In this document: one piece after another, positions 16,935-31,489 of the stretch
Numbering within the stretch: the first letter of the stretch is position 1
How the letters are laid out: each line of letters opens with the position of its first letter
Origin: an uncultured delta proteobacterium
Lineage (GTDB): Bacteria > Myxococcota_A > Polyangia > Polyangiales > Houyiibacteriaceae
Assembly: GCA_963699755.1 (NCBI GenBank)
Contig: CAVOVB010000001.1
Location: 480,001-544,000, forward strand
Reading direction: 5' to 3'
Length of the DNA: 64,000 nt
The notes under the pieces: model-generated
Databases searched by the model: none
What the model saw: only the letters and a program-made list of their open reading frames with translations
What the model was told of the DNA's origin: nothing
Made by a program: the position numbers and the translations under genes

Positions 16935-17011
16935 TGGCGCGCCTGGAGGGACTCGAACCCCCGACCATCGGCTTAGAAGGCCACCGCTCTATCCAGCTGA
17001 GCTACAGGCGC
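16935..17011 (-). tRNA. tRNA-Arg, anticodon TCT
   Basis: Reverse complement GCGCCTGTAGCTCAGCTGGATAGAGCGGTGGCCTTCTAAGCCGATGGTCGGGGGTTCGAGTCCCTCCAGGCGCGCCA folds as a cloverleaf with encoded CCA. Confidence 0.97.
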
Positions 17012-17013
17012 GT
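16971..17013. repeat. Left att site (43-bp direct repeat, tRNA 5' half)
   Basis: gcttagaaggccaccgctctatccagctgagctacaggcgcgt is identical to 30751..30793. Confidence 0.95.
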
Positions 17014-17222
17014 AGGTTTTTCTGCGGTTTCATGGGCCCCCGTGGGACCCGTTTTCAGACTGTAACGTATTTGTCTCAGTCCCGAATTTTTCGCGGCGGT
17101 GCATCGGTGCGCCGCTTGCTCTGTTTAAACGTCGACGGCGGCCACCCTGCTACCGGTGTCCGCCGCCATTCATCGCCTGTTCCGGCCCCTTACCGTGACG
17201 GCGACCCCGAAAGGCCACCGAC

Positions 17223-18434
17223 ATGGTGCCTGCTTCATACATCGCGACACGATCGAGCGCAAGTCCTGAACCCGTAACGACCGAGTATGGTCAAGGCGTC
17301 CTCGACGGCATCGAGGAGGACATCCGCAACATCGACAAGAGCGAGGGAGACCACTACTCCCGACTCTTCGGCCGCATCGCGAAGCTTTGCAAGCACTGCA
17401 ACGGGGGCAGCATTGCGTGGCACGACGCGGAAGCGATGTTGTATGCGGTCGTCGAGGAGACTCGGCTCCGAACCCGGCACGAGCTCAAGAACGACATCCG
17501 AAGCGCCATGCGTCGCGTGGGTGACGAGGCGCTCCACCCGCCCGGAGAGAGCCGCGCCGCAGACAATGCCCCGCGCCTAGCACCGGAGCCTCCCGAGACG
17601 CCCTGGGCGGACCCGGTGGGCGTTCAGGCGCTTTGGGAAAGCACGGTCCCGATTGCGTTCGACGACGATGCTTATGCGTGGTCCACGCTGCGCGGGTTTG
17701 ACCATCGCGAAGCAGAGTTTCAGCGGCTGGCGCGGTTCATTCCTCGCCTCACTTCCGACGATCTGACGCCGGAGCAGGTCGAGGCCGTCAAGCGCGTGCT
17801 TCCCTCAGGGACCAAGCTCTGGGGCGAGTGGGGGCCGCCGCTTCGACTTGGTTATCGTGTCGCGCTCCCGACGTATGATGCCGACGGTGTCCTGCGGTCG
17901 CTTCGACTGCGGCTCGTCAACATCAAGCGCGGCACCGACGGCATTGCGAAGCTCCGCGAGCTCAAGTCGGGTGACAAGAAGTCGCTGAGCCTCCGTGGTC
18001 GCGCCAAGGGCGCCATCCTTGCCAACGCCGGAGCGCTCGAGCTCTTGCGGGGTAACCGACCTCGTGGGGAGTTCGTGGTCATCGTCGCCGAGGGCGAGAT
18101 GGATTTCCTGGTCCTCTCACTCGAGCCAGACGAGATCACGCGCTGCGTGTTCGGGCTTCCGGGCGAGGGCGCGTGGTCGTTCGACATTGCGAAAAAGATT
18201 CCGGGCGACGCCCGCGTTCTCATTGCGACCCATTCCGACAGCGCCGGCGAGGGATATGCGAAAGCGGTCCGAGCCACGCTCCCAGGACAAGGCCGGCTCG
18301 AACGCTGGCGACCGTGGTCGGTGGGCATGGAGGCGCTGAAGCAAGACCTCACGCCATACGCGGACGGTCGAAAACTCAAACATGACGTGGCGGACGTCCA
18401 CGGTCTTCGCGGGGGTGCGAGCAGTGGTTTCTGA
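17223..18434 (+). CDS. Toprim-domain primase-like protein
   Basis: IVAEGEMD and ATHSDSAG Toprim motifs; overlaps the helicase start. Confidence 0.7.
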   Translation: MVPASYIATRSSASPEPVTTEYGQGVLDGIEEDIRNIDKSEGDHYSRLFGRIAKLCKHCNGGSIAWHDAEAMLYAVVEETRLRTRHELKNDIRSAMRRVGDEALHPPGESRAADNAPRLAPEPPETPWADPVGVQALWESTVPIAFDDDAYAWSTLRGFDHREAEFQRLARFIPRLTSDDLTPEQVEAVKRVLPSGTKLWGEWGPPLRLGYRVALPTYDADGVLRSLRLRLVNIKRGTDGIAKLRELKSGDKKSLSLRGRAKGAILANAGALELLRGNRPRGEFVVIVAEGEMDFLVLSLEPDEITRCVFGLPGEGAWSFDIAKKIPGDARVLIATHSDSAGEGYAKAVRATLPGQGRLERWRPWSVGMEALKQDLTPYADGRKLKHDVADVHGLRGGASSGF

Positions 18435-20013
18435 AGAACAGACAAGGCGCGCCGCCGAAGCGCGCAAGCGATTTGAAGAGGACCGGACGCCTGAGAACGA
18501 GCAGGCGTTTCGGGAGGCGGTCGAGGAGCTTCAAGGCAAGGCGCCACGCGTAGTCGACAAGCCGCTCACCGACCTGACCGAGGAGGGCGTGGCCGACTAC
18601 TTCGTCACCATGTTCGAGAACGAGCTCCGGCACGTTCCGAAGTTCGGCTGGTTCCAATGGGCCGACTCGCACTGGAAGCAAGACGAGACCGGCGAGGTCT
18701 ACGGGCACTTTCGAGAGGCCACCGCTCGACTTCGAAGACAGTGGGAGGCGATGCCGAAGAAGACCGACGAGCAGAAGGCCATGGCTAGGTCATTCGGCCA
18801 GTTCGTCTCTCGAATGCGATCTGCTCGGTCACACGACGCAGTGCTCAAGATTGCGTCTCGCGACCCGAGGCTCGTGATTCGTCCCGGTGACCTCGACCAG
18901 CAACCGACGCTACTTCCGTGCCTCAATGGGACGGTCGACCTCACGACCGGCGAGTTCCGCGAAGCAAGGCGCGAGGACTTGCTCAGCCGCGTGGTTCCCG
19001 TCGACTACGACCCGATGGCATCGGCCCCGGTTTTCGAGAAGTTCCTGCGACGCATCCAGCCCGAGCGGGAAATGCGCGACTTTCTCCAGCGTCTTCTCGG
19101 CTATGGTCTCTTCGGCTTCGTCCGAGAGCACGTGTTCCCCATCTTCTACGGCGACGGCGCCAACGGGAAGAGCGTGCTCGCGCAGGTCGTCCAGCACGTC
19201 GTCGGAGAGTACGCGCAGACGGTGCCGCGAACCTTGGTCGTCGAGACCCGAAACGAGCAACACAAGACCCAGATTGCGCGGCTTCATCGCACTCGAATGG
19301 GATTCATCCACGAGACCGAGCGAGACGCGAGGCTCAACGTCGAGGCCGTCAAGATGCTGACCGGAGGCGACGTGCTGACCGGCCACTTCATGCGAAAGGA
19401 CTTCTTCGACTTTGTGCCGAGTCACGCGCTCTATCTGCTCAGCAACTGGAAGCCCCAGGTCGACGCGGCGATGCGAGCGGTATGGCGACGCCTGTTGCTC
19501 GTGCCGTTCGATGTCGAGATTCCCATCGAGGAGCAAGACCTCTCGCTCGCCGACAGGATTATCAAAGAGGAGTCGGCGGGCGTCCTGCGTTGGCTCGTGG
19601 AAGGCGCCGCGTGGTGGTGGGTTTTCTCGCAGGTGCGTGACGGGAGCTCAGGGCTGCTTCCGCCGAAGCGCGTGATCGACGAGACGAAGGATTACCAGCT
19701 CCAAGAGGACATCGTCGGCCGGTTCATCGACGAGTGTTGCGACTTAGGCAATGGCCGAAAGGTTCAGGCCGGGAAGCTCTACACCGCATACAAGAGCTAC
19801 TGCCAGCGCGAGGGCATCGAGAAGCCCGCGACGAGCAACAAGTTTGCCGACGCCGTCCAGCGAGTGAAGGGTGCAGACGGTCGCCGCATCGGCAAGAGCG
19901 AGAAGGACTCAGTCGACGGGCGAAAGTATTACGACGGGGTCGGCCTCCACGCCTCAGCCGAGCGAGACCCTCGAGAGGTGCCCGACGACGACCCGGAGAA
20001 CTGGTCCTTCTAG
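18424..20013 (+). CDS. P4/D5-family SF3 helicase (phage/plasmid primase C-terminal type)
   Basis: D5_N region (LPCLNGTVDLTTGEFR), Walker A GDGANGKS, KMLTGGD, AVWRRL, C-terminal winged helix; start may instead be 18382. Confidence 0.92.
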   Translation: MVSEEQTRRAAEARKRFEEDRTPENEQAFREAVEELQGKAPRVVDKPLTDLTEEGVADYFVTMFENELRHVPKFGWFQWADSHWKQDETGEVYGHFREATARLRRQWEAMPKKTDEQKAMARSFGQFVSRMRSARSHDAVLKIASRDPRLVIRPGDLDQQPTLLPCLNGTVDLTTGEFREARREDLLSRVVPVDYDPMASAPVFEKFLRRIQPEREMRDFLQRLLGYGLFGFVREHVFPIFYGDGANGKSVLAQVVQHVVGEYAQTVPRTLVVETRNEQHKTQIARLHRTRMGFIHETERDARLNVEAVKMLTGGDVLTGHFMRKDFFDFVPSHALYLLSNWKPQVDAAMRAVWRRLLLVPFDVEIPIEEQDLSLADRIIKEESAGVLRWLVEGAAWWWVFSQVRDGSSGLLPPKRVIDETKDYQLQEDIVGRFIDECCDLGNGRKVQAGKLYTAYKSYCQREGIEKPATSNKFADAVQRVKGADGRRIGKSEKDSVDGRKYYDGVGLHASAERDPREVPDDDPENWSF

Positions 20014-20129
20014 AGTTCCGCGCACCCGCCGCGCCCGCACGTCCCGAACCGTTTGTCACAAAACGGGGGTTGACAGAGTCCCTGTTTCAGGTGTGTCCTG
20101 GACATCCCCCGAGAGGAAGGAGTATCGCT

Positions 20130-21245
20130 ATGCGAGCTTTTGGCGCGGCGAGGACGGTCCCGTTGTTTCTTGCGGTTGTTGCTGCACTGACGATCGGTTG
20201 CAGCAGCGACGGCGGAGGCGGCAATGGTGACGGTGGCAGCGGTGGTACGGCTGGTTCTGGAGGTACGGCTGGCTCTGGTGGGAGTGCTGGAACCGGCGGA
20301 ACGGCGGGAACCGGCGGCACTGGAGGCACCGGTGCCACCGGAGGGACCGGTGGCACCGTATCCGGATGGATTTCACAAGATAGCGGCTTCGGGCACGATC
20401 TCCGGGCCGTGTCGTTCACCGATGCAAACACGGGGACGGCCGTGGGTGAATGGAATCTGATTTATCGGACGACCGATGGAGGCACGACGTGGACCACGCA
20501 GCCTAACCCAGCCCCCAATGTTGGCTTCCTCACTGGCGTGTCGTTTACCGATGCAAACACGGGGACGGCTGTGGGTTGGGATGGGCTCATTTTGCGGACG
20601 ACCGATGGGGGCACGACGTGGACCGAGCAAGATAGCGCCACCTTGGACTCGCTCTATGGTGTGTCGTTCACCGATGCGAACAACGGGACGGCCGTCGGTG
20701 CGAACGGGACCGTAGCATTGAGGACGACGGATGGGGGGGCCACGTGGACCATACAAAATCGCGGCGTGGGCGGGTGGGGCGTATCGTTCACTGATGCGAA
20801 CACAGGGACCGCCGTGGGCGTTGCCATTTGGCGGACGACCGACGGGGGGGCGACGTGGACCATGCAAGCCAGCCTCGCCCCCATGGTCGCCACCGGCGTC
20901 TTTCAAATCCCCGACATCCTCTATGGAGTGTCGTTCACCGATGCGAATAACGGAACGGCCGTCGGTGCGAGCGGGACCATAGTGCGGACGACCGATGGCG
21001 GGGCGACATGGACCGAGCAAGGTAGCGGGACCACGAACGACCTCAATGGCGTGTCGTTCACTGATCCGAACACAGGGACCGCCGTGGGCGACAGTGGGAC
21101 GATAGTGCGGACGACCGATGGCGGGGCGACGTGGACCGTGCAAAGCAGTGGCACCACCAACGACCTCTATGGCGTATCCTTCACTGATGCGACCACGGGG
21201 ACGGTAGTGGGCGACTTCGGGACCATCTTGCGGACGACTGACTGA
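20130..21245 (+). CDS. YCF48/BNR-repeat beta-propeller lipoprotein with Gly-rich linker (cargo)
   Basis: RBS ggaagga; lipobox LTIGC; GGTAGSGG linker; seven VSFTDxxxGTAVG...RTTDGG repeats. Confidence 0.85.
   Translation: MRAFGAARTVPLFLAVVAALTIGCSSDGGGGNGDGGSGGTAGSGGTAGSGGSAGTGGTAGTGGTGGTGATGGTGGTVSGWISQDSGFGHDLRAVSFTDANTGTAVGEWNLIYRTTDGGTTWTTQPNPAPNVGFLTGVSFTDANTGTAVGWDGLILRTTDGGTTWTEQDSATLDSLYGVSFTDANNGTAVGANGTVALRTTDGGATWTIQNRGVGGWGVSFTDANTGTAVGVAIWRTTDGGATWTMQASLAPMVATGVFQIPDILYGVSFTDANNGTAVGASGTIVRTTDGGATWTEQGSGTTNDLNGVSFTDPNTGTAVGDSGTIVRTTDGGATWTVQSSGTTNDLYGVSFTDATTGTVVGDFGTILRTTD
20409..21242 (+). repeat. Seven intragenic tandem repeats of about 120-147 bp
   Basis: Units begin at 20409, 20538, 20661, 20781, 20928, 21051 and 21174 (gtgtcgttcaccgatgc-like). 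Confidence 0.9.
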
Positions 21246-21307
21246 CTGCACCATGTGCGACGTCGGCGCGTTTGAGGCGCAGCCGTAGGAGACCAGGGCC
21301 TCCAAGG

Positions 21308-21550
21308 TGTCCGGAGGGTCTCCGGTGAGGTAACTTGCTGGAATAACTTGCTTTTGTACTTGCCACCCAAAGCGCCACCGGAGACTACGGAGACGTTGCG
21401 GGGTTGTAAACTCTACATGGTTTTCTCTCTCGTGCGTGAGTGCTAACTGAGCAAAGGTATCCGTAGTCTCCGGTCAGAACAGAAACTGCTGCGTTTTGCG
21501 CCCTAAAAGTACCGGATACCTTGCCTCCAGGGGTCTCCGTAGGTCTCCGG
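21308..21550. other. Candidate replication origin with direct and inverted iterons
   Basis: At least 8 copies of GT(C/A)TCCG(G/T) in both orientations; perfect 15-bp IR 21377-21391/21460-21474; (ta)acttgc x3; ORF-free and visibly more AT-rich. Confidence 0.7.
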
Positions 21551-22025
21551 GAATTGACCATACATATCCATTACCGCTGTAGAGGTCGCACTAGGAGTGC
21601 ACGGGTAGGTAACACCAACCGTTTTCCACGCCTGGCACCTCTCGCGCTTGGGTAAGGAGGGAGCGACAGTGACCGGCAAGTGGCTCTATAGGCCAACCGT
21701 CACCGTCTCGACGGCGCTGTGATTGCGGATACTTAGCGCTCAGCTTCCGGCATCTTCCCGCCGACTGTCACGCCAGTGTCCCCTCGAGAGCAAAAGTGGC
21801 CATACACGACCCCCACGGTGCCATAGGTAACCCCTGCTCGGAGCGGCCGGCCGAGCCCTCTGCGGTCCGCAAAATTCTCAGTCCTAGATTTCGACTTGGA
21901 ACAATTGCACAGAATTTTGCAGCGCGTAGGCCCAAAGTAAGCTGCATATTCCCAGGGAGTGCTATACTCGAGCCATCGGTGTGGTGGTCACCTCCCCACG
22001 CCCGGGCCCTGGGTCGGTCCGTCAT

Positions 22026-22346
22026 TCAGCCGACCTGGGGCGCCTTTCTATTCGCGCAGTAGCAACTCCGGCAGCGCTGAGACCGGCCCTGGACGATGTC
22101 GTTCAAGTAGCGGGCGTAGACGTTGCCGCAGCTGACGCAGAAGACCTCGATGGTGGTCAGCTTGTCCCAGGCGTTCTTGCGGTAGGGCTCGGAGACGACC
22201 TCCCAGCCCGTGACCCGGCCGTACTTGTCGACGATGCGTTCACCGAAGCGGATGGTTCGCCAGTTGCGAGCTCGGCGCTGATGCTTGCTCGGTGTGCGCT
22301 CTACGCCCTTCCAGAGCCACCGTACGGCCATGCTCGAGCCTACCAT
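22026..22346 (-). CDS. Small zinc-ribbon protein resembling the N-terminal module of phage HNH/AP2 proteins
   Basis: KYGRVTGWEVV...CVSCGN...IVQGRSQRCRSC pattern. Confidence 0.5.
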   Translation of the reverse strand: MVGSSMAVRWLWKGVERTPSKHQRRARNWRTIRFGERIVDKYGRVTGWEVVSEPYRKNAWDKLTTIEVFCVSCGNVYARYLNDIVQGRSQRCRSCYCANRKAPQVG

Positions 22347-22935
22347 GGCTCCGGCATCATCTCAGCCTTGAAATAGCCTCAAATGGCGCTGTACGGGCTT
22401 GCAGTCCCTGTTATAGTAGCGGCAGGCTGGTTTTGATATCCCTGGCCGAGCTCGAGCCGCTTTGGTTTCATGGGGCGGCTCGAGCGACTGATGACCCCGA
22501 GCAGTGCTTCTCGCTTGTCGCTGCTCGTGGGCCATCGCTAACCCCGACCGATGTGCAGTCACTTCTCGGCTTTCTGGCATCAGACTGAGCTCACGCGGAA
22601 AGAGCAGGAGAACAACCACGGCTCGATTAGCGGGCACTCCAAGGGGCTGAGTGTCATCGGTTCGCCGGGTCCAAAGTTCGTGCGGCTCGAGCGCTATTGG
22701 AAACGCGAACCGAAGGACGCAGGGCCGTGTCCGCATTGCGGCGAACCCGATCGGTGGAAGTGCTGGTCCAAGACGAGGAGACTCGAGCTCTTCGGAATGG
22801 GTCGTCGATGAACGACGGGGACGAGGCAGGTGACGCGCTCCGACTGCTGGCGGTCCTGTTGTGGTGGGCGGCTGCGATTGCGGCAGCGTTCGCGACTGCT
22901 CTGCTCTGGTGAGCTCGAGCGCTGAGCATAAAAAT

Positions 22936-22973
22936 GCCCTCGACGGCTCCCAGGAGAAGCAACCGTCGAGGGC
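22936..22973. terminator. Candidate bidirectional intrinsic terminator
   Basis: 11-bp stem gccctcgacgg/ccgtcgagggc flanked by aaaaa and ttt; lies downstream of the leftward operon. Confidence 0.55.
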
Positions 22974-23182
22974 TTTGCGTTTCGACGCCGTTAGGATCGC
23001 ACAGCGGCGTGCTCAGTCAACCGTCGCGAATGGGGAGCGATGCGCCTACCCGGGGAAAGGAGGCTAACCCTGGCAGGCGGTCGCTCGTAACTGCTGAACG
23101 GAAAAGCGACAACGTGAGCGCACTTCCGGAAAAATTCGTCGCTCGAGGATGCGCTGTAAGGCCCGCAAATGTTTTCCAGGTC

Positions 23183-23413
23183 CTAGGCATCGTCCGAATT
23201 CCGAGGCGCTGAGAACTCGTCGGCCAAACCAATCGCAATCACCGAACCGACGACTTTCCAGCACACGCGACGGTCGCCGACCTCGAGCTCGCAGAGACGC
23301 TTGTCCCCGGACTCGAAGTCGGCGCGCTCCACCACGAGGCGAAACACATCCATCCGGTCGAGTGCGTCGAGCGCCTTGATACCGGGGGAGAGCCGCGCCT
23401 TGATGTCACTCAT
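23183..23413 (-). CDS. Hypothetical protein
   Basis: ATGA overlap with the upstream gene. Confidence 0.55.
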   Translation of the reverse strand: MSDIKARLSPGIKALDALDRMDVFRLVVERADFESGDKRLCELEVGDRRVCWKVVGSVIAIGLADEFSAPRNSDDA

Positions 23414-24453
23414 GGCTGCGCTCGCTGACGCTTCCACTCAAGGAACTCGGCCTGCTCGCGTTGCCATTCGCGGTAGAGGTCCCATCCGACGCGGTTTTCG
23501 TGCATGGACTGAAGCGCGGCGGTGCCGCTCTCGGCCGTGGCGCAGGAATAAAGGTGGTACGGGCCATCCGTTTCGAGTCGGGGGTCATCGAGCCAAACCA
23601 AGACGAGCGGCTCGTCTCGCCCGTATGCGTCCCTGTTGCGCACCTCGATCTGTTTCAGCGTGGCGACCCTGCCGTTGGCGTAAGAGCGTCCGTAGTCCGG
23701 CACAACGGCGCCGACGCGAAGTTCCGCAGCGCTGAACCTGTAGCTGATGTCGTTCGGCAGCCCGTGGACCAGTAACCCTTCCGCGATGACACTGTGTCCA
23801 CGCCAGTTGCCGAGCGGCATAGAGGCGATGCGGCGCTCCATGTCTGGGTCCATCGACGGCGGGTCGTTGAGACCCGTGCCCCACTGGGTGTAGACCGCAT
23901 CGAGGTTCGCTCGGCGGTATTGGTGGCAATCCTTCCTGCGCGGGTTCGGGTAGTGCTCGACTCTCGTCTGGTTCCAGTGGGCAATCGTGACCTCGATAGG
24001 CGGCTCGTCCTCGTACTGCCCCGGGAGCGGTCGCCAGTAGGCATAGAACCCGCCACACGGCTTTCTCGTTCCGAGCAACTCGGACTTGACCGCGTGTGCT
24101 TCGTAGACCGGGCTGTGCCGGATCTTGCGCCCCTTCACACGTTCGCCAATCTCGAGGAAGTGCGGGTGCTTCTGCGTGCCACCCGAGTCGATGTGGACAC
24201 CGCCCGTCTGCGTGCGCGGCTTCGCTCTTGGGTAGAAGCTGCTCGCCGCGACCACGTCACCCGGCTTGATTGGATCTTCATCCTCGGCAAGCCAGCCAAG
24301 CTCGCGACAGGCGCTCTCCCAGTTCCCGAACTCATCTCGGCCGACCTTGCCGAGAACCCGAGTTTCCCACTCGTCATCCGCATCGTGCTGTATCTTTTGA
24401 ACCACCTGCCCGGTCGGGTTCAGCACGCAGACGTAATGTCGTTGCATTACCAT
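23410..24453 (-). CDS. Hypothetical protein
   Basis: Long ORF in a tightly coupled operon; no recognised domain. Confidence 0.65.
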   Translation of the reverse strand: MVMQRHYVCVLNPTGQVVQKIQHDADDEWETRVLGKVGRDEFGNWESACRELGWLAEDEDPIKPGDVVAASSFYPRAKPRTQTGGVHIDSGGTQKHPHFLEIGERVKGRKIRHSPVYEAHAVKSELLGTRKPCGGFYAYWRPLPGQYEDEPPIEVTIAHWNQTRVEHYPNPRRKDCHQYRRANLDAVYTQWGTGLNDPPSMDPDMERRIASMPLGNWRGHSVIAEGLLVHGLPNDISYRFSAAELRVGAVVPDYGRSYANGRVATLKQIEVRNRDAYGRDEPLVLVWLDDPRLETDGPYHLYSCATAESGTAALQSMHENRVGWDLYREWQREQAEFLEWKRQRAQP

Positions 24454-24455
24454 CT

Positions 24456-24665
24456 TCAAATACCTTTCCGGGCCGCCGGCGTGCGCACGTAGGTGGGGTC
24501 CCACTTGCCTACCACCAACGAACCTTCGTAGTCGCCGTCCTCGGTGCCAAACCAGACTTCATGCACGCCGTCTTGAATTGGGTCTATGTGGGTGACGACC
24601 ACTAGGCCGCCCTGTTCATGGAAGAAAACATCGTCTTCCTTCAACTCGTACAGCTTCTTTTCCAT
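24456..24665 (-). CDS. Small acidic hypothetical protein
   Basis: Strong RBS AAAGGAG; 2 bp from the next gene. Confidence 0.7.
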   Translation of the reverse strand: MEKKLYELKEDDVFFHEQGGLVVVTHIDPIQDGVHEVWFGTEDGDYEGSLVVGKWDPTYVRTPAARKGI

Positions 24666-24733
24666 TTTCACTCCTTTCCGAACCCGGCCGCCGCAGAGGC
24701 ACCATTGCCTCCACGACGGCGAGCTCTGTTACA

Positions 24734-25129
24734 TCAAAACGGAATGCTGTCCTCGTCGGCGAGAACGTGCGCTCCGGCCGGTGCCGGCTTCGGCGCCCGG
24801 CTCCGCACCCTAATGGCGCTCTTGAGCTCACTGCCCACTGCCACCTCGGCCTTGAAGAGCGCGACGCTTTGGCCCTTCCACGCCTCCGGCTCACCTGAGC
24901 CGATGAGCGCCTTGATGGTCCTCACGTTGGTCTTATTCAGAACCCAGCGGGTCGGGCCGCCCGGCACCAACGGCGCCGCCAACTTCACGACCGGCTTCTT
25001 CTGAGAAGTCCCGTCCCGTTGGTCGAGCATCTCGACGCCGACCGACTCGATGACTGCGACGACGTCGCCGGAGTCCGGCAAGTCGACCGAGCTGATGAAT
25101 TTTCGTTCGAATGTGCTTTCAATGTCCAT
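24734..25129 (-). CDS. Phage-type SSB-like protein
   Basis: Beta-rich core with LNKTN motif and acidic C-terminal DEDSIPF tail. Confidence 0.65.
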   Translation of the reverse strand: MDIESTFERKFISSVDLPDSGDVVAVIESVGVEMLDQRDGTSQKKPVVKLAAPLVPGGPTRWVLNKTNVRTIKALIGSGEPEAWKGQSVALFKAEVAVGSELKSAIRVRSRAPKPAPAGAHVLADEDSIPF

Positions 25130-25160
25130 TTTCAGTTTCCCTGTCAGTTGAGTTTCAATT

Positions 25161-25376
25161 TCAGCCGGATGATTCCGGCAGAGTCTTGACGCGGCTCACG
25201 AGGTCGACCTCGACGCTCGAATCGAACGTGCGAGACCGGACCTCGCGGCCGTCTTCGTAAATGACCTCGACGTCTCCCGCGTCGGTGACGACGGCGTCCA
25301 TCGCCGCGCAGCACTCGACGAGCTCGTAATCGAAGACGAACCGGTCGCCGGTGCGGAGCCGGGCAATCATCATCAC
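25161..25376 (-). CDS. Small hypothetical protein
   Basis: 4-bp overlap with the upstream Toprim gene. Confidence 0.6.
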   Translation of the reverse strand: MMMIARLRTGDRFVFDYELVECCAAMDAVVTDAGDVEVIYEDGREVRSRTFDSSVEVDLVSRVKTLPESSG

Positions 25377-26404
25377 TCGATCTCCTCTTGAAGCTGGTCG
25401 ATGAGTTCGCTCACGCGCTGCATCGGCTCTTCGATGTCGTCCTGGCGCTCTGCCCAGATGTCAGCGTCGATGTGCTCTGCGATGGCAGCTCGGATGATGT
25501 CGCGCAGAGCAATCTCATTGGTGGCAGTGAGCGCATTCAACTCCACCATGTCTGGTCCGTACCGGTCGATGTACTCTTGAATTTTGCTGTTCTGCCCCTT
25601 CTGCTGCGCGCTGAGGCTGCGTCCGGTGTGCATCTTGTCGTAAGCGCTTTCCATCGGGAGGTTGCGCTCCCTGGCTTGCTCCAGCGTGATGGCGACTCTG
25701 GTCACCGAGTCGACCTCGGCAACGTCGCGCACCCACCGGGCATCCATCCCAACGCCCTGCATGTCGTGGTCGCCCGCATAGAGGACGACGGGCTCCTGAC
25801 CCCCGTCACGCACCCGACGACACCAGTGCCCCACGTTCAGCTTCTGCCGGATGGACGCGTCACCCCCGGTGCAGAGAAAGTCGGTGCGCGTGCGGCCGCA
25901 GGCGTTTTCAACGATGCTGCGCAAGCCCAGCTTCTCGCAAAGGACGAGGGCTCGCACGGCCTGCCCTTCCCAGGGGTCCAGTCTCAGTTGCGGGATGCTG
26001 TGCGCCCAGTCGTCCACATCGTCGTGGAAGCTCCACCCCCGGATATCGTGGTCGCCGTCATCGTCGAGCAGGTCTGGGTCGAAGGCGTCGGGTCCACGGT
26101 CTCCAGCAAGCCACTTTTTCCGAGCTGTGATGAGAGTGTTTACAACCCATGTGCCCCAGAGCACCTGTTTCTTCGTGCCGTCCGGGTTCTCGGTTTTGTA
26201 GTCCGGCTCGATGAAGCTCCAGGGTTTGTCGCGGAGGTAGTAGTAGCAGTCGCGCACGCCGGGCGGCCCCAGAACGCGAGCTTCGCTGTAGTCTCTCACC
26301 CACTGGAGAAACTGCCGCCGCTCCTCGTCGGTGACTTGGATGACGAGTTTGCCTTTCTGGATAACCAGAATTTCGTCCTGCGGACGTGGCGTGACGGGGG
26401 TCAT
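25373..26404 (-). CDS. TopoVI-A/Spo11/JetD-like Toprim protein
   Basis: VRDCYYY near the N-terminus, VLCEK, GGDAS, LYAGDHDMQG, RVAITLEQ and VELNAL motifs. Confidence 0.7.
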   Translation of the reverse strand: MTPVTPRPQDEILVIQKGKLVIQVTDEERRQFLQWVRDYSEARVLGPPGVRDCYYYLRDKPWSFIEPDYKTENPDGTKKQVLWGTWVVNTLITARKKWLAGDRGPDAFDPDLLDDDGDHDIRGWSFHDDVDDWAHSIPQLRLDPWEGQAVRALVLCEKLGLRSIVENACGRTRTDFLCTGGDASIRQKLNVGHWCRRVRDGGQEPVVLYAGDHDMQGVGMDARWVRDVAEVDSVTRVAITLEQARERNLPMESAYDKMHTGRSLSAQQKGQNSKIQEYIDRYGPDMVELNALTATNEIALRDIIRAAIAEHIDADIWAERQDDIEEPMQRVSELIDQLQEEIE

Positions 26405-26925
26405 GACAGCACCTCGCCTCGAATTCGTTCCCGGACTCGCGCCGTTGCGCCGGGGGCGAGTTTCCACATGGGCGGCACTGCGACCGGGCTCGGGTCGTAG
26501 AAAATGGCCGTGTCGCCCTCGGCCCACGAGAGCCCTCGGCACATCAGTCCCGGCGGCACAACGATGCCGCGCTGCGGTCGACTCATCTGTCCCGAGGAGC
26601 AGTCAATCGTCCAGCCCTTGCTGCGAACCACAAGATGACCGTGGAGCCCCGGCGACTGGTCCGGCATGTCGTGGCGAACAGCAACGGTCCACGCATCGTC
26701 CGGCATCGGGTCGACGGGCTCGGGGGACGTCTGCACCCACTCGCACCACGCACGATTCGCGGCGGTGCAATCCATGACCGCGAGCGAGGCTGGGATTCCG
26801 TGTTCGCGCAGCACCTCGAAGGCGTGGTAGCTGGCCGGAATGCAAACATCCTGTTGTGCGTATTCCTCGACCACGATTCCGGGAAGCCGCTCAACGATTC
26901 GGCTGTACAGCTCGCTGCGCCTCAT
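26401..26925 (-). CDS. Putative papain/transglutaminase-like Cys-His-Asp protein
   Basis: DVCIPAS...GHLVV...TIDCSSGQ triad pattern; ATGA overlaps on both sides. Confidence 0.55.
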   Translation of the reverse strand: MRRSELYSRIVERLPGIVVEEYAQQDVCIPASYHAFEVLREHGIPASLAVMDCTAANRAWCEWVQTSPEPVDPMPDDAWTVAVRHDMPDQSPGLHGHLVVRSKGWTIDCSSGQMSRPQRGIVVPPGLMCRGLSWAEGDTAIFYDPSPVAVPPMWKLAPGATARVRERIRGEVLS

Positions 26926-27272
26926 GACAGCCGCCCCATCCACTCCGCCCATTCGGACATCCGGCTCGCGAGTATCTCCAGATGCAAGGCCATGAGTCCT
27001 CGCATCGAGCCCGGTCGCTGACCTTCTTCGTCCCACGGCAGAATCCGCTCGAAGAAATCCGCGAGCTGTCGTTCGTTCTCTTCCGTCTGATCGCGAACCA
27101 GCGTGCTCCACTTGTCGCAGAACTGTTCAATGCGCTCTGGCCGTGAGAGCCACGCCAAGCGAGCGGCGCACCGCGGGCAGTGTTCGTTGAACGGCATCTC
27201 CCATGCCCGGCGACGGCCCTCGACAGAGCAGCGCTCGCAGCCAGGCAGCTCCCTCGGATACCGGCGACTCAT
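26922..27272 (-). CDS. Hypothetical zinc-binding protein
   Basis: CERC...CPRC motifs; ATGA coupling. Confidence 0.6.
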   Translation of the reverse strand: MSRRYPRELPGCERCSVEGRRRAWEMPFNEHCPRCAARLAWLSRPERIEQFCDKWSTLVRDQTEENERQLADFFERILPWDEEGQRPGSMRGLMALHLEILASRMSEWAEWMGRLS

Positions 27273-27484
27273 GACGCCCGCCTCAGCTGAGCGCGGACCC
27301 ATCGGCCAGCGAACCGGAGCTCGAACTCGACCCATTCGCCGAGACCAGCGACCCGCCTGCGGGCCTCGAAGAACCTCTCGGCGTCCTCGCGATACCGGAA
27401 CGGCCGGACCGCCATCGTGCCGTGAATCGGATTGTGGACGACCACTCGCCACGGCGCCTCGCTCGCAACCCCTTGCTTTCTCAT
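27269..27484 (-). CDS. Small hypothetical protein, first gene of leftward operon
   Basis: RBS AAGGAGG directly upstream. Confidence 0.7.
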   Translation of the reverse strand: MRKQGVASEAPWRVVVHNPIHGTMAVRPFRYREDAERFFEARRRVAGLGEWVEFELRFAGRWVRAQLRRAS

Positions 27485-27531
27485 GCCTCCTTGCCTTTCT
27501 GCGCCCTGGCCCGGGGCCTCAGCGCAATCCC

Positions 27532-27559
27532 AGAATAGACCCATGTCCTCCTTTGTCAA
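27532..27559 (-). promoter_or_regulatory. Sigma70-type promoter for the leftward operon
   Basis: TTGACA (27559-27554), 16-nt spacer, TATTCT (27537-27532) on the minus strand. Confidence 0.7.
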
Positions 27560-27635
27560 CCTAACGGGTGGACAAGTACGGCGGTGCGCGCTACGGTGTT
27601 GGCTATGGACGGCGAATTGCGCGACACTGGGGCCC

Positions 27636-28052
27636 ATGGCGGGGAAGAAGACCTCCATCTATCTGACCGACGAGGACTCGGCGCGGCTGGATGCGGTGCA
27701 CGAGGCGATGCGGACGGCTCCGAACCTCCGGCAGTTCGATCTGAAGTGGAGCGACACGCTTCGACTTCTCTTGCGCCAAGCGCTCCAAGTGGCCGAGCTC
27801 GAGTACCTGCACAAAATTCCCGAGGACGCCGACGCAGAGGAGTGGCTCGATGCGCTCAAGGAAGAGCATCGGAAGCAGTCCGCGATTTTGCGAGCCCTTG
27901 TCGACGAGGGCTGGGCGGAATCGAAGCTGACGACGGGTGGACGGCGCTGGCTTTCGAAGGACGGCCGGGTCTCATTGGAGCCGCAGCCGGAGGCGCTCCC
28001 AAAGAAGCGCCGCTCAACAAAGAAGGATCCGAAGAAGAACGACCGGGAGTGA
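27636..28052 (+). CDS. Ribbon-helix-helix regulator
   Basis: KKTSIYLTDEDSARLD...WSDTLRLLLRQAL: strand followed by two helices. Confidence 0.65.
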   Translation: MAGKKTSIYLTDEDSARLDAVHEAMRTAPNLRQFDLKWSDTLRLLLRQALQVAELEYLHKIPEDADAEEWLDALKEEHRKQSAILRALVDEGWAESKLTTGGRRWLSKDGRVSLEPQPEALPKKRRSTKKDPKKNDRE

Positions 28053-28080
28053 CGGCGTCGCTCCTTGATAGGAGCAACGT

Positions 28081-28314
28081 ATGAACGGACACGAAACGAA
28101 CCCCCAGGTCGCCTTCCGGGCACCGCGCACGCTGATCAGGCGGCTCGACCGTCTCAGCAAGGCGCTTCAGAAGAGCGAGGGAATTCCCGCAAGGCGAAGC
28201 GTCGTCATTCGACGTGCCGTGCTGGCAGGTCTGCCGCACCTCGAGGACGAAGCGCTCAGTCTGCTCACCGACGAGCTCGGCCGTCACCCCGACGTTGACG
28301 AGGTGTCGCCGTGA
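28081..28314 (+). CDS. Ribbon-helix-helix (CopG-like) regulator
   Basis: QVAFRAPRTLIRRLD...RSVVIRRAVLAGL; RBS aggag. Confidence 0.7.
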   Translation: MNGHETNPQVAFRAPRTLIRRLDRLSKALQKSEGIPARRSVVIRRAVLAGLPHLEDEALSLLTDELGRHPDVDEVSP

Positions 28315-28715
28315 TCAAGCTAACCAAGTGCGAGCCACGCACCACCCGAGACGGATTCGCGCCCACCAACCGCGAGGCGCCCAGCAACAAAACTTACGAA
28401 AGAAAAAGTATGACCATCGAACAACGGCGAGACGCCGACATCGTGCGCCAATGCGGGGAAACCACCGCCATCAAGAAACAGTACATGGACGCGCAAGAGC
28501 AACGCACGATCGACGCAGCAGTAGGAAAAGTCCGGGCTGCTATCAAGAGCCTGGAGGCGAGGATCGACGCCCTCGAAGCACGGCAGGCGAAAGCACGGCA
28601 GGACGCACGCCTCGGACCACTCAGGGCTTACTTCAGCCGACCCGTGAAAGCCTACGAGCTCGACGAAACAGCGAGCCTACTCCGCCGTTACCCCATTTTT
28701 GGAGATCGACCATGA
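28311..28715 (+). CDS. Hypothetical coiled-coil protein
   Basis: GTGA/ATGA coupling; alternative start at 28410. Confidence 0.55.
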   Translation: MIKLTKCEPRTTRDGFAPTNREAPSNKTYERKSMTIEQRRDADIVRQCGETTAIKKQYMDAQEQRTIDAAVGKVRAAIKSLEARIDALEARQAKARQDARLGPLRAYFSRPVKAYELDETASLLRRYPIFGDRP

Positions 28716-29410
28716 GCCATTTGTATACACAGCCGCGAACGCCCGAAGAGGACATGGAGCTCCGGCTCCGTGATCTCGAGGAACACGACTACGCACTGCT
28801 TCGAGCGGCCAAAGCGGCGGGTGCCCGCGTCGTGACCCGGGCTGGCATGTACGTGATTCTCAACCCCGAGGTGATGGGTCTCGAAGCTCCCGCCCCGGAC
28901 GACGAGCAACCCACGTTCCGGCTGCCCCAGATCCATAGGCGCGACGTGTACCTTCCCCTGGAAGACCGAACGCTGACCGCGAGGGCCTTCACCGATCCAT
29001 GCCGCAAGACGCCGAAGAAAGCGATCGAGTTCATGGCCAAGTGCACGCGGACTCCGGTCCTGCCGAGATTCACCGCGGTGCGGACGAACGATCATCTCGC
29101 CGTTGGCGCGACCGAGCCCCTGGCACTCGACGCGCTGGGTGCAACTCCAGGCGACACGGTTCAAGCGCTGCTCATCGACTGCGACAGCGAGCGGCTCGCG
29201 ATGCAGATCGCCGAAGAGCAACGCGACGGCCTCCCGTGGTCAGGGGACCTCGAGATCGGTTCGACGGGCCGCTTGCCGTTCGGATGGCACGGACAGCGAT
29301 TGACCCCCGAAGAGATGAGCGCACGCGACCATCAGGTCCGGGTGGACCGCGCTGCCAAGCGGGCACGACGCGACAAAGTCATCCGTCAAATGCAGAGGGA
29401 GCCGCTGTGA
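28712..29410 (+). CDS. Hypothetical protein
   Basis: RBS ggag; coupled to both neighbours. Confidence 0.65.
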   Translation: MSHLYTQPRTPEEDMELRLRDLEEHDYALLRAAKAAGARVVTRAGMYVILNPEVMGLEAPAPDDEQPTFRLPQIHRRDVYLPLEDRTLTARAFTDPCRKTPKKAIEFMAKCTRTPVLPRFTAVRTNDHLAVGATEPLALDALGATPGDTVQALLIDCDSERLAMQIAEEQRDGLPWSGDLEIGSTGRLPFGWHGQRLTPEEMSARDHQVRVDRAAKRARRDKVIRQMQREPL

Positions 29411-29733
29411 CTGACGAGCGGCGATACGGAGGATGGAAGGACGTGGCCAACTACTTCGGCATCGGCCGAGAGTCCGCCTACGACCTGTGCAGGGCCCATT
29501 CCTGGGCGGAGAAGCACGCCGGTAAGTGGCTGGTGAATCTCGCTCGGATGCGCGAGTGGGGCGATTTTGGAAGGCATGGAGTGTGGCAAAACGAGTCTAC
29601 AAGCGGGGAAGTGTCTGGTGGGGCGACTTCCGTGCTCTCGGCGGGAAGCAAGAGTCGCTTGGCGTCACGAGCAAGGCGTCGGCCCTCGTCAGATACAATG
29701 AGCGCGAGCTGGCGCTCAGTGAACGCCGACTAG
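29407..29733 (+). CDS. Excisionase-like HTH protein
   Basis: WKDVANYFGIGRESAYDLC HTH plus wing (GKWLV); overlaps the integrase start. Confidence 0.7.
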   Translation: MTDERRYGGWKDVANYFGIGRESAYDLCRAHSWAEKHAGKWLVNLARMREWGDFGRHGVWQNESTSGEVSGGATSVLSAGSKSRLASRARRRPSSDTMSASWRSVNAD

Positions 29734-30701
29734 GACCGCTTCCCCTCGGGATGGTGCTGACGTTTGCGCTCGAGGCGAAGAAGCGTCGGGCCAAGGCCCA
29801 CGGTCGCGATGTCGAGAAGACACTCAGGACCGGCCGCCAGCATTGCGAAGTGCTCGAGCGTCACCTCGGAGACCTCGGTCTCGACTTCAACGACCCGCAC
29901 CTTTCGCTCGAGGGCGTGGGCGAGGACTTCCTCGACAAGCGCACCGCCGACGAGACCAACAAGGGAACGACGGTGACGCCGCACACGGCGCTCAAGAACC
30001 TCAAGACGCTGTCCCAGGGACTTCGTGAGGCGCGCAAGCGCAAGTGCTTCGAGGGCGAACCGAGCGAGGTCATCCCGGAGTTCCTGACCGATGGTGCCGT
30101 CTACACTCCATCGGACCGCTGGCTCACGGCGGACGAGTTCGACGCGATGTTCAGCAAAGCGCCCGAGCAGCGCCGCAAAGACTTCGTGTTGGGCGTCGAG
30201 ACGGGCGCAGACCACGGCGAGCTCGAGAAGGTGGACAAGGCTCTCCATGTCGACCTCTCGACCGTGCGAGGCCCCCAAGGTGCCATACGACTGCCGGCGA
30301 CCAAGACCGAAGAGCGCGACCGCTGGATTCCGTTGAGCGTCGCAGCGCGCAAGGCCGTCGACGAGTGTCTCGCCGAAGAGGGCGATTACCTCGTGACGCC
30401 GTGGGCCAACTTCAAGCGCGACATGGCGAACCCATGCAAGCGCGCCGGCGTCGTGCCCTTCATCTGGAAAGACATTCGCCGCACGTTCGCGAGCCGTTGC
30501 GCGCAAGCGGGCGTGCCCGAGTTCTGGACGGTGAAGCTCATGGGCCACCGCGACAGCAAGATGATTCGTCGCGTCTATGCGCGTCTTTCGCCGGGAACCT
30601 ACACCGAGGCCATCAAGCGACTCGAGACGATTCCGTATGTCACGCCAGTGTCTCGTGGCGACATCGTCGAGCTCAGCAACTACAGGGAAAACCCTGCATG
30701 A
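29583..30701 (+). CDS. int: Tyrosine recombinase/integrase
   Basis: N-terminal VYKRGSVWW arm-binding-like segment; TKT, DIRRTFAS, LMGH and VYARL motifs; ends about 50 bp from the att repeat. Confidence 0.9.
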   Translation: MAKRVYKRGSVWWGDFRALGGKQESLGVTSKASALVRYNERELALSERRLGPLPLGMVLTFALEAKKRRAKAHGRDVEKTLRTGRQHCEVLERHLGDLGLDFNDPHLSLEGVGEDFLDKRTADETNKGTTVTPHTALKNLKTLSQGLREARKRKCFEGEPSEVIPEFLTDGAVYTPSDRWLTADEFDAMFSKAPEQRRKDFVLGVETGADHGELEKVDKALHVDLSTVRGPQGAIRLPATKTEERDRWIPLSVAARKAVDECLAEEGDYLVTPWANFKRDMANPCKRAGVVPFIWKDIRRTFASRCAQAGVPEFWTVKLMGHRDSKMIRRVYARLSPGTYTEAIKRLETIPYVTPVSRGDIVELSNYRENPA

Positions 30702-30750
30702 CTCAGGAAGCCATGGTGCAGAAACCCCTTATTCAAAACGACGCTGTATT

Positions 30751-30793
30751 GCTTAGAAGGCCACCGCTCTATCCAGCTGAGCTACAGGCGCGT
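30751..30793. repeat. Right att site, orphan 5' half of tRNA-Arg
   Basis: Exact copy of 16971..17013; lacks the T-arm and 3' acceptor strand. Confidence 0.95.
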
Positions 30794-30898
30794 CTCGGCG
30801 CTGTTTAGCACGATAAGCATTGAGGTGTACGTCGACGGCCATCGGACAGCGGCATTCCCCCCAAACCGCGCCACACAAACCCTCGCGGTCGCAGGCCG

Positions 30899-31336
30899 CT
30901 AGGCGGCCGACCCAGCAAGTCCGAGCGCGACCCGTATATCTCGCAACACGCTCTTCTCGACTGACTTGATGCGTCCGTCCGCAGAGGCTGCGATCTCGGC
31001 GGCACCCATGACGAGCTCCGCGTGTTTCGCAACGCCCTTGGCGCGGGCCACACAGCTCAGCGCAAGGCGCGTTCCGTCTTCGGGATCGGAGAGCATGACT
31101 TCAGACAAGTCACCGAAGGCTTGGGAGAGCTCGTCGAAATCGATTCTGGGGAAGACATCGGCCTTGGAAGCCAAGGTCTCGAGAAAACGATCTGCCTCTG
31201 CTTTGGTGAGCTCGCCGTCCGAGGCGGCCACCAACACAAACGCACCGGCCACCGCTCGCAGCAGGCCCGGCGGAACATGATCGTCAAAACGCTGCCATGC
31301 TGCGAGCGCGTAGGCGACTGACTCTTCTGGGATCAT
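30899..31336 (-). CDS. TerB-family protein
   Basis: LVAASDGELTKAE and IASADGRIKSVEK motifs. Confidence 0.8.
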   Translation of the reverse strand: MIPEESVAYALAAWQRFDDHVPPGLLRAVAGAFVLVAASDGELTKAEADRFLETLASKADVFPRIDFDELSQAFGDLSEVMLSDPEDGTRLALSCVARAKGVAKHAELVMGAAEIAASADGRIKSVEKSVLRDIRVALGLAGSAA

Positions 31337-31489
31337 CAATGGCTCTCCAATGAAATCAAGCGTAGCCCGATGTCCGGCCTCGGCCAGCGCGGATTCGTCC
31401 CGTGAAGCCAATCTAGTGAAATCAAGGCGCTTCTTTGGCACAGCGAGCACCCAGCCACGGAACGCGCCTGGGGGTCGAGTCCTACCAGT

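Follow-up and report, generated by a model that had tools for sequence, protein, structure and literature searches.

What kind of mobile element carries an integrase and replication genes of its own, has no recognizable gene for a virion or for conjugation, and is inserted in the front half of a single-copy tRNA gene? The question is raised by a 13.8-kb element in the genome of an uncultured delta proteobacterium (GenBank assembly GCA_963699755.1, contig CAVOVB010000001.1, positions 480,001–544,000 of the forward strand). This stretch of 64,000 nucleotides is called the window, and positions are given within it. The genome carrying the element, G000 (assembly of 5.35 Mb), was compared with 54 others of its genus, 55 genomes in all. 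On balance we lean towards a self-replicating, helper-dependent, satellite-like integrative element, nearest to the phage-inducible chromosomal minimalist islands (PICMI) and the virion-encapsidated integrative mobile elements (VEIME), whose family is so far confined to one Polyangiales-like genus. The unusual points of the element are the 5′-half geometry of its target and the active site of its integrase. Both were absent from an earlier reading of the letters alone (the sequence-only reading), which had proposed a possibly undescribed satellite or integrative-plasmid family in a myxobacterium-like host.

Insertion in the 5′ Half of a tRNA-Arg Gene

The element is bounded by exact 43-bp direct repeats, at 16971–17013 on the primase side (tRNA positions 1–41 plus two upstream bases) and at 30751–30793 on the integrase side (a 5′ tRNA stub). 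In two relatives of the same genus (G010 and G007), the flanking permease, tRNA-Arg and GMC-oxidoreductase genes adjoin each other, so the 13.8 kb represent an insertion. The uninterrupted site of these relatives provides the empty attB and agrees with the attachment (att) repeats first described. The attP joint of an excised circle was not seen in the assembled contigs of four metagenome runs, from which rare circles could escape. A 95%-identical piece from another study covered the integrase end and the adjoining 30 bases of the repeat, one base fewer than bridging requires. Pieces identical to the element occurred in two metagenome runs from sediment, both belonging to one study and possibly the source; no RNA run was listed as containing it.

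The repeat corresponds to the 5′ half (positions 1–41) of a tRNA-Arg(TCT) gene located at 16935–17011 on the minus strand. This is the single TCT tRNA copy of the assembly, and the AGA codon was present in 1068 of 1846 long host open reading frames (ORFs). A promoter-like motif (RTGYTA within 30 nt) was observed ahead of 31 of the 37 other full tRNA-Arg(TCT) copies examined in the genus. In G000, it precedes the stub at 30793 and not the intact gene: the native host tRNA promoter motif TATCGTGCTAAAC (30794–30825, minus strand) now reads the stub, antisense into the integrase. With the host promoter placed ahead of a 41-nt stub, the intact tRNA, which lies behind element DNA devoid of the host motif, therefore depends on element DNA. 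We infer that the primase-side arm and its leader (17014–17222), which contain hairpins and an arm-type doublet at 17061, must supply tRNA transcription. The leader is homologous to leaders found in G093 and G013. When it was compared with the DNA ahead of tRNA-Arg, none of 300 shuffles scored as well in G013; the match in G002 was weak (9 of 300 shuffles), and an empty-site control gave 29 of 300. In G013 (L098:8479-10896), the tRNA-Arg(TCT) gene points the other way with respect to the GMC gene, and the same arm motif precedes it at the 63-nt distance seen in the element; no tRNA stub was present within the 20 kb examined.

Other tRNA loci of the genus were inspected. Three tRNA 5′-half copies in G074 were considered as stubs and rejected, all being full genes with a promoter; these three full tRNA-Arg(TCT)–GMC loci in one assembly (C206, C306 and C696) suggest mixed strains in the bin. 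At least seven tRNA-fragment islands were found in G000 (Ser, Lys, Arg, Gly, Leu twice, Thr and Cys). At its tRNA-Leu(TAG) gene (G000:C1:1560241-1588836, L157 in part), a 7-kb 3′-fragment island and a 21-kb 5′-fragment island each carry MobC and relaxase genes. The latter was rejected as a parallel case, the promoter motif being kept by both 5′ copies; the integrase frame runs into the tRNA. In G003 (contig C28, L028), a 14-kb 3′-type island at tRNA-Arg(TCT) carries two integrases with tape-measure-like and tail-fibre-like genes, and a 55-nt 5′ tRNA duplicate with its own promoter motif lies 130 bp upstream of the full gene. At tRNA-Arg(CCG), an arm-like A-tract replaces the usual promoter motif in G000 (C10:156704+), G092 (L095:4300-4381) and G077 (L115:9620-9721), the last two showing short direct repeats further upstream. 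A TerB-like gene occupies 30899–31339 of the window, between the stub and the GMC gene, in an interval that is variable among relatives. An Rfam scan of the element detected no family besides the tRNA, and no second tRNA was found in it.

An Integrase Without the First Catalytic Arginine

The tyrosine integrase gene (29583–30701, plus strand) was identified by a match to phrog_1 (E 2.6e-24), as the sequence-only reading had it. An arm-type doublet at 30638, inside its 3′ end, is the counterpart of the one at 17061. A third doublet at 21761–21789 (21766) lies in a stretch 79% identical to the integrase 3′ end and may be what remains of another att arm.

Lambda Int and Cre cannot do without the first catalytic Arg. 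The alignment places this residue of the solved integrases 4A8E and 5C6K in the column of position 210, where the integrase of the element has Asp, as do 17 of 17 close homologs. The other catalytic positions examined (K241, R299, H322 and Y332) are present, and the His of the HxxR motif is Lys. In a tree of 23 rows, the 12 Asp rows formed one clade (support 100/99), and the rows outside carried Arg (10) or Trp (1). Arg245 was observed in all 12 Asp rows and in the Trp row and in none of the 10 Arg rows, the rows being kin and Lys being common at this position. Two close pairs within the Asp clade gave dN/dS values of 0.10 and 0.14, indicating purifying selection; pairs involving the element's own integrase were too distant for this measure (0.39–0.43). 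The genes of the clade are full length and end at three different targets: the tRNA-Arg 5′ half, a tRNA-Glu 3′ half and a topoisomerase gene junction. This integrase probably works with a rearranged active site in which Arg245 is a candidate substitute.

The Same Geometry at the Start of a Topoisomerase Gene

Three metagenome integrases 46–53% identical to that of the element (L050, L052 and L055) end at one 19-bp sequence that spans the junction between the A- and B-subunit genes of a type II topoisomerase, from the stop of the former to the opening codons of the latter. In G000, these genes are coupled. The 19-bp site occurs once in 43 of the 44 genomes having it and twice in G093. There, the two copies flank a 6.8-kb element whose integrase is gone and whose primase homolog has been kept, and an intact B gene lies behind a primase-side leader. 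The alignment of this leader to that of the element scored 120 versus 83.5 ± 7.1 for shuffles, none of 300 scoring as high. The geometry being the same at the topoisomerase junction, gene-start capture is therefore a habit of this integrase clade. It is not clade-wide at greater depth, because more distant integrases (30–45% identity) insert in the usual way, at 3′ halves of tRNA-Phe, -Glu and -Arg. An Asp-clade member in G073 adjoins a tRNA-Glu 3′ half. The insertion of SXT at prfC is a comparable 5′-end insertion. Islands with related integrases were also seen at tRNA-Phe in G045 and G101 (L066 and L072); their repeats include the tRNA terminator, and they appear, judged by eye from the sequence, to carry type I restriction-modification genes.

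A Cassette Marking a Family of Small Islands

Upstream of the integrase, on the plus strand, lie five genes, a cassette and a Xis-like gene after it. The two ribbon-helix-helix (RHH) regulators at 27636–28052 (with a C-terminal extension) and 28081–28314 had no Pfam match. A profile built from seven homologs found as its best PDB match the RHH/CopG structure 6xrw (E 0.042), in line with the earlier assignment. They are followed by ORF101 (28410–28715), a helical coiled-coil protein, by ORF232 (28712–29410), the hallmark protein of the family, with no known domain, and by a Xis-like protein (29407–29733) with a helix-turn-helix (HTH) in its first ~55 aa. The frame of this last gene overlaps the integrase start, as in two relatives. 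Its first 60 aa matched HTH_17 with E 1.9e-4 and 22 bits, below the Pfam cut-off of 27, in keeping with the xis gene of the sequence-only reading. A coiled-coil match of ORF101 to a head-protein family (E 0.004) was the sole head-protein match of the element, and a role of ORF101 as capsid scaffold was set aside with no more than this match in its favour.

Homologs of ORF232 were found in 9 of the 54 other genomes of the genus and in 0 of 33 genomes of other genera in the family; the shared cassette thus marks islands in 10 of 55 genus genomes. A 217-aa ORF of a tRNA-Ser island was rejected as a counterpart of ORF232 (probability 0.2%). An integrase was present within about 11 kb at 7 of 10 ORF232 loci. 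ORF101 lies directly upstream of ORF232 in 7 of 12 loci, including those of the element and of L050, and an RHH gene shortly upstream in five. Five kinds of replicon are associated with the cassette: Toprim plus D5 in the element, Prim-Pol plus D5 in G011, a family A DNA polymerase in G093 (L114:4779-6626), a replication initiator in G023 and DUF3987 in G094. The G011 island is complete, capsid-less and 12.2 kb in size, and occupies a tRNA-Glu 3′ half. Its circular order is similar to that of the element: RHH, ORF101, ORF232, att/int/xis, primase, helicase, lipoprotein cargo and an 86-aa ORF. By gene content and order, the RHH–ORF101–ORF232 cassette marks a family of small islands with swappable lipoprotein cargo. 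No head, tail or terminase match was obtained at E 1e-4 for 82 ORFs, chosen by codon bias, from 9 sibling loci of the 10.

Replication Module, Cargo and Leftward Operon

The Toprim-type primase gene (17223–18434, plus strand) gave directly a weak match to Toprim_4 (E 0.02). Its homolog in G093, the front half of a primase-helicase fusion, shares 32% identity with it and is positive for Toprim_2, and through this homolog the primase proposed at first gains support. The next gene (18424–20013, plus strand) encodes a D5/P4-family superfamily 3 (SF3) helicase (TIGR01613, E 3.5e-78), again as first proposed; its counterpart in G074 is 91% identical over 346 aa, with a dN/dS of 0.09. A YCF48/BNR-repeat lipoprotein of host type follows (20130–21245, plus strand), and a different gene occupies this slot in G074. 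At 21247–21288 (plus strand), an earlier cargo gene has left behind its 3′ end, CDVGAFEAQP*, which resembles choice-of-anchor Q ends. The cargo consists of host-type lipoproteins swapped at a slot between helicase and origin.

The likely replication origin, as judged from its repeats, is an iteron cluster at 21318–21549 with eight GT(C/A)TCCG copies in both orientations. It is the sole 250-bp stretch with at least five copies in the 5.35-Mb assembly, and its six GTCTCCG copies were reached in 0 of 500 shuffles. The stretch is 82% conserved in G074, though the gene ahead of the origin differs there, and the iterons of the sequence-only reading are in this way borne out. A conserved non-coding block at 21960–22050 (plus strand), in which the extended −10 motif TGCTATACT leads into a strong hairpin (z −4.2), had a clear match in 1 of 54 other genomes (G074) and no Rfam match. 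It is possible that it represents a small RNA or the terminator of the left operon.

The leftward set comprises nine coupled ORFs plus a few small ones, close to the dozen or so coupled small ORFs counted before. A sigma70-type promoter for it (TTGACA-16-TATTCT, 27532–27559, minus strand) lies within the divergent switch region; two such sites were found versus 1.8 expected by chance, so that support comes from position and not from count. The first gene of the operon, a 71-aa ORF (27269–27484), is followed on the minus strand by a 116-aa ORF with two CxxC pairs (26922–27272) and by a 174-aa ORF (26401–26925) without database match, whose Cys...His...Asp pattern we take to resemble that of papain or transglutaminase. 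The next product, a Topo VI-A/DUF2399-type Toprim protein (25373–26404) with conserved Tyr, Glu and DxD, is 25–29% identical to proteins of 39 phage records and is probably a nuclease. Beyond a 71-aa ORF of no identified family (25161–25376) lies the gene for a 131-aa phage-type protein (24734–25129), related to Vibrio phage proteins, whose acidic tail ending in DSIPF suggests an SSB-like (single-stranded DNA-binding) protein. Another 71-aa ORF (24456–24671) and a 76-aa ORF (23183–23413), both of no identified family, border a 347-aa mosaic ORF (23410–24453), one homolog of which spans only residues 237–345. Further left are a Zn-ribbon ORF (22026–22346, minus strand) resembling the front part of phage HNH proteins (phrog_559, E 0.002), with no recognised nuclease domain, and an 86-aa Zn-ribbon ORF (22551–22811, plus strand) that recurs in related islands. 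The ESM Atlas gave only 0.76 leads for the 347-aa ORF and no usable match for ORF232. PDB sequence searches with the primase, the Toprim protein and its profile, and the ORF232 profile returned nothing significant. No PADLOC defence family matched any of 16 element ORFs better than E 0.003.

Packaging Genes and Comparison with Known Elements

Between 20 and 22 ORFs of the element were scanned per library against Pfam, PHROGs and NCBIfam. No significant head, terminase, tail, relaxase or type IV secretion system match was obtained, which confirms the absences first noted, and the same libraries detected such genes in other islands of the genus. The assembly scan found no VirB4 family, the primase had no match among 72,556 plasmids, and scans of the genome contig collection for relatives found nothing.

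Ties to phages and their satellites were observed in the surroundings of the family. A 10-kb island similar to phage-inducible chromosomal islands (PICI) at tRNA-Asp in G020 (L042, G020:C1) carries an integrase, an excisionase, a ParB-methyltransferase, a D5 helicase 38% identical to that of the element, a small terminase (TerS) and a capsid-protease. In G000 itself, a 10.8-kb tRNA-Ser(TGA) island (G000:C1:125695-136531, L156) has a capsid-protease fusion, a VapE-type helicase, a related RHH protein, an HTH protein, an integrase and lipoprotein cargo in a circular order like that of the element, and is on this gene content a candidate capsid-encoding satellite. A 71-bp stretch of this island is 81% identical to 23144–23214 of the window. 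A head-maturation protease gene lies directly ahead of ORF232 in L050, and in G013 a TerS-like ORF is located 2 kb upstream, near the tRNA-Arg leader.

The element was tested against the gene sets of described elements. For the PICI core set of SatelliteFinder, profile scans detected an integrase and a primase-replicase and no small terminase or capsid morphogenesis gene; the small-terminase search was negative in 22 ORFs, and the same library finds TerS in G020 and G013. As a PICI regulator, HTH_17 remained at 22 bits against a cut-off of 27, the regulators of the element being RHH proteins. Capsid, portal and large terminase, as in capsid-forming PICIs (cf-PICI), were not detected. The P4-like core set consists of Psu, Sid and Delta, none of which was found in the Pfam and PHROGs scans. 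No relaxase, coupling protein or VirB4 of an integrative conjugative or mobilizable element (ICE/IME) was found, and a relaxase was detected in another island of the genome. Of the PICMI gene set, the integrase is present, HTH_17 and DUF5906 were below cut-off and DUF3987 was not found; the target is tRNA-Arg(TCT) and not a site next to fis.

The comparisons that follow rest on the accessible parts of the papers cited. Like the PICMIs of Vibrionaceae (PMC10803314), the element has an integrase, an HTH regulator/excisionase, a primase-helicase and variable cargo, has no capsid-remodelling gene and needs no resident helper. It is about twice their size, occupies the tRNA-Arg 5′ half whereas they occupy fis, has a Toprim primase and a D5 helicase as two proteins where they have DUF3987, and adds RHH regulators and a phage-like leftward operon. 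PICMIs and VEIMEs are packaged as concatemers in helper virions, whereas the element is known from its genes alone. Marine VEIMEs (PMC9618062) are likewise integrase-bearing, capsid-less and rich in genes without homologs, but are defined by their presence in virions, the element being known from sequence. With Gram-negative PICIs (PMC10085698; PMC10111431) the element shares a tRNA target, a size of 10–15 kb, an integrase, HTH_17 (in the element below cut-off), a D5-type replication gene and an origin downstream of the primase. In contrast to them, it has no TerS, no capsid gene and no AlpA/Stl/MerR match above cut-off, is at best a three-component (Type C) match, and has its int and pri split by the att site. 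The element thus fails membership of the PICI, cf-PICI, P4, PICMI and ICE/IME groups, yet it would seem to work like PICMI/VEIME-type elements.

The proposal of an undescribed family therefore stands in part. The cassette in 10 of 55 genus genomes argues for a family that is apparently undescribed, and homologs of the element's proteins, named Polyangiales or Deltaproteobacteria bacterium, agree with the host proposed. The missing capsid does not stand as an unusual trait, since PICMI and VEIME satellites are also capsid-less and this lack is not new. The accessible part of the SatelliteFinder text (PMC10085698) contains neither 'Myxococc' nor 'Deltaproteobacteria'. No report of the element family, of the Asp integrase clade or of a parE-site island was met in the literature reachable without subscription papers or supplements.

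The 5′-half tRNA geometry is already known but rare. Islands with a 5′ tDNA fragment account for 159 of 3919 Islander islands (PMC4383910), and the geometry is seldom seen in bacteria and was described for archaeal pTN3 (reviewed in PMC8371274). The element shows the features of the Islander 5′ type: a 5′ fragment upstream in the same orientation, an integrase inside and a size within 2–200 kb. In such islands and in pTN3, the 5′ half is likewise duplicated and the rebuilt tRNA is separated from its native promoter. The integrase gene of pTN3 is split and its promoter drives the tRNA, whereas that of the element is whole and at the stub end; the tRNA promoter must therefore come from the primase-side arm. 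Islands at dusA (PMC4482086) insert at the 5′ end of a host gene and provide a replacement 5′ end and promoter, as do the sister elements at the topoisomerase B start. Their integrase family and targets differ, and the targets of the element's clade include a tRNA 5′ half as well as the start of a protein gene. In tRNA-dependent lysogeny (PMC10865867), integration also endangers an essential single-copy tRNA and must be compensated by the element; those phages carry a separate full tRNA without rebuilding the host gene, whereas here the tRNA is rebuilt and there is no second one.

A Model and Its Alternatives

We propose the following cycle. In the integrated state, RHH proteins would hold the divergent switch (27485–27635) shut. 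Upon induction, Xis and Int would excise a 13.8-kb circle, and the host tRNA would regain its own promoter. Excision would join the RHH–ORF101–ORF232–xis–int operon to the primase and helicase genes across attP, and these two proteins would copy the circle from the iterons, the leftward operon (SSB-like and Toprim nuclease-like proteins) serving replication or interference. Since scans of the assembly detected neither a large terminase nor a portal nor a VirB4 family, the part of helper would fall to an incoming phage, as it does for PICMIs. Packaging in phage particles may then take place without capsid remodelling, the DNA leaving most likely as full-size concatemers. At reintegration, the intact tRNA would be rebuilt behind the primase-side arm, which would drive it outward.

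A broader hypothesis, which we consider possible rather than probable, is that an Asp-for-Arg integrase clade with a rewired active site, in which the neighbouring Arg takes over, targets for insertion the starts of genes that the host needs (tRNA-Arg(UCU) and the type II topoisomerase B subunit) and places them under its primase-side arm. The clade would be carried by an undescribed satellite family whose RHH–ORF101–ORF232 cassette would be a new helper-exploitation or stability module.

Several observations weigh against the satellite-like reading. No TerS, capsid-remodelling or other packaging gene was identified in the element, where remote capsid or packaging folds could escape sequence-level searches. 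The scans for large terminase and portal families in the assembly were negative, hence no resident helper was seen, and the viral contig collection yielded no close relative of the integrase, Toprim protein, primase, ORF232 or 43-bp repeat. Frameshifts interrupt ORF232 in G011, G092 and G093, and replication genes are missing from several siblings. The first catalytic Arg is absent from the integrase. Between 17014 and 17222 there is no sigma70 consensus, so the outward replacement promoter was not located; six of the 37 other full tRNA copies are also without the promoter motif, the leader being present in only two (G013 and G002).

The absence of packaging genes, in the element as in the 82 sibling ORFs, would also suit an integrative plasmid-like element that replicates after excision and spreads without phage particles, by DNA uptake after lysis, in vesicles or by helper conjugation on an unrecognised oriT. 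Plasmid traits are seen in the RHH regulators and the interchangeable replicons, neither a terminase nor a portal of a resident helper was seen, relaxase-bearing islands exist in the genome, and the accessible literature offers a precedent in the transfer of S. thermophilus satellites by natural competence. We nevertheless consider this unlikely: the element has no relaxase and the assembly no VirB4 family, the primase was unmatched in the plasmid collection, the proteins of the left operon match phage proteins and siblings carry TerS or head protease genes. Those phage-type proteins could instead point to the early region of a temperate phage that has lost its structural genes. The divergent promoter region and leftward operon resemble such a region, distant integrases (27–31%) occur on viral contigs of 27–47 kb that also carry genes for lysis, baseplate, TerS or DNA polymerase, and the segment 21600–23180 is patchy, with the third arm-like doublet at 21766. 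The repeats at the two att sites are, however, exact copies, and in the G011 island, which is complete at 12.2 kb, the genes follow a similar order. The helicase–cargo–origin segment of G074 is flanked by lipoprotein and not structural genes (a 4.2-kb contig, by inspection), and viral contigs yielded neither ORF232 nor the primase nor the close Toprim family, which makes a prophage remnant rather improbable.

The integrase might also be catalytically dead, retained as a DNA-binding or accessory protein in an element that is stuck or recombined in trans, the arm being kept because the host tRNA depends on it. The replacement by Asp of an Arg conserved in 4A8E and 5C6K, the arm-like scars without an element ahead of the tRNA in G013 and G002, and the loss of the integrase in the G093 element are in keeping with this. 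With Lys241, Arg299, His322 and Tyr332 conserved, and with Asp-clade genes that are full length, under purifying selection and at three different targets, we regard a dead integrase as very unlikely. The satellite-like element with an incoming helper remains the reading that we favour.

Satellites of myxobacteria are barely described; the element provides a precisely bounded member, and ORF232 a marker gene, for a whole family. If active, an integrase without the first catalytic Arg would revise the textbook catalytic rule. Through capture of its 5′ end, an essential tRNA or a topoisomerase subunit comes under the control of a mobile element, which could explain the persistence of element arms as scars.

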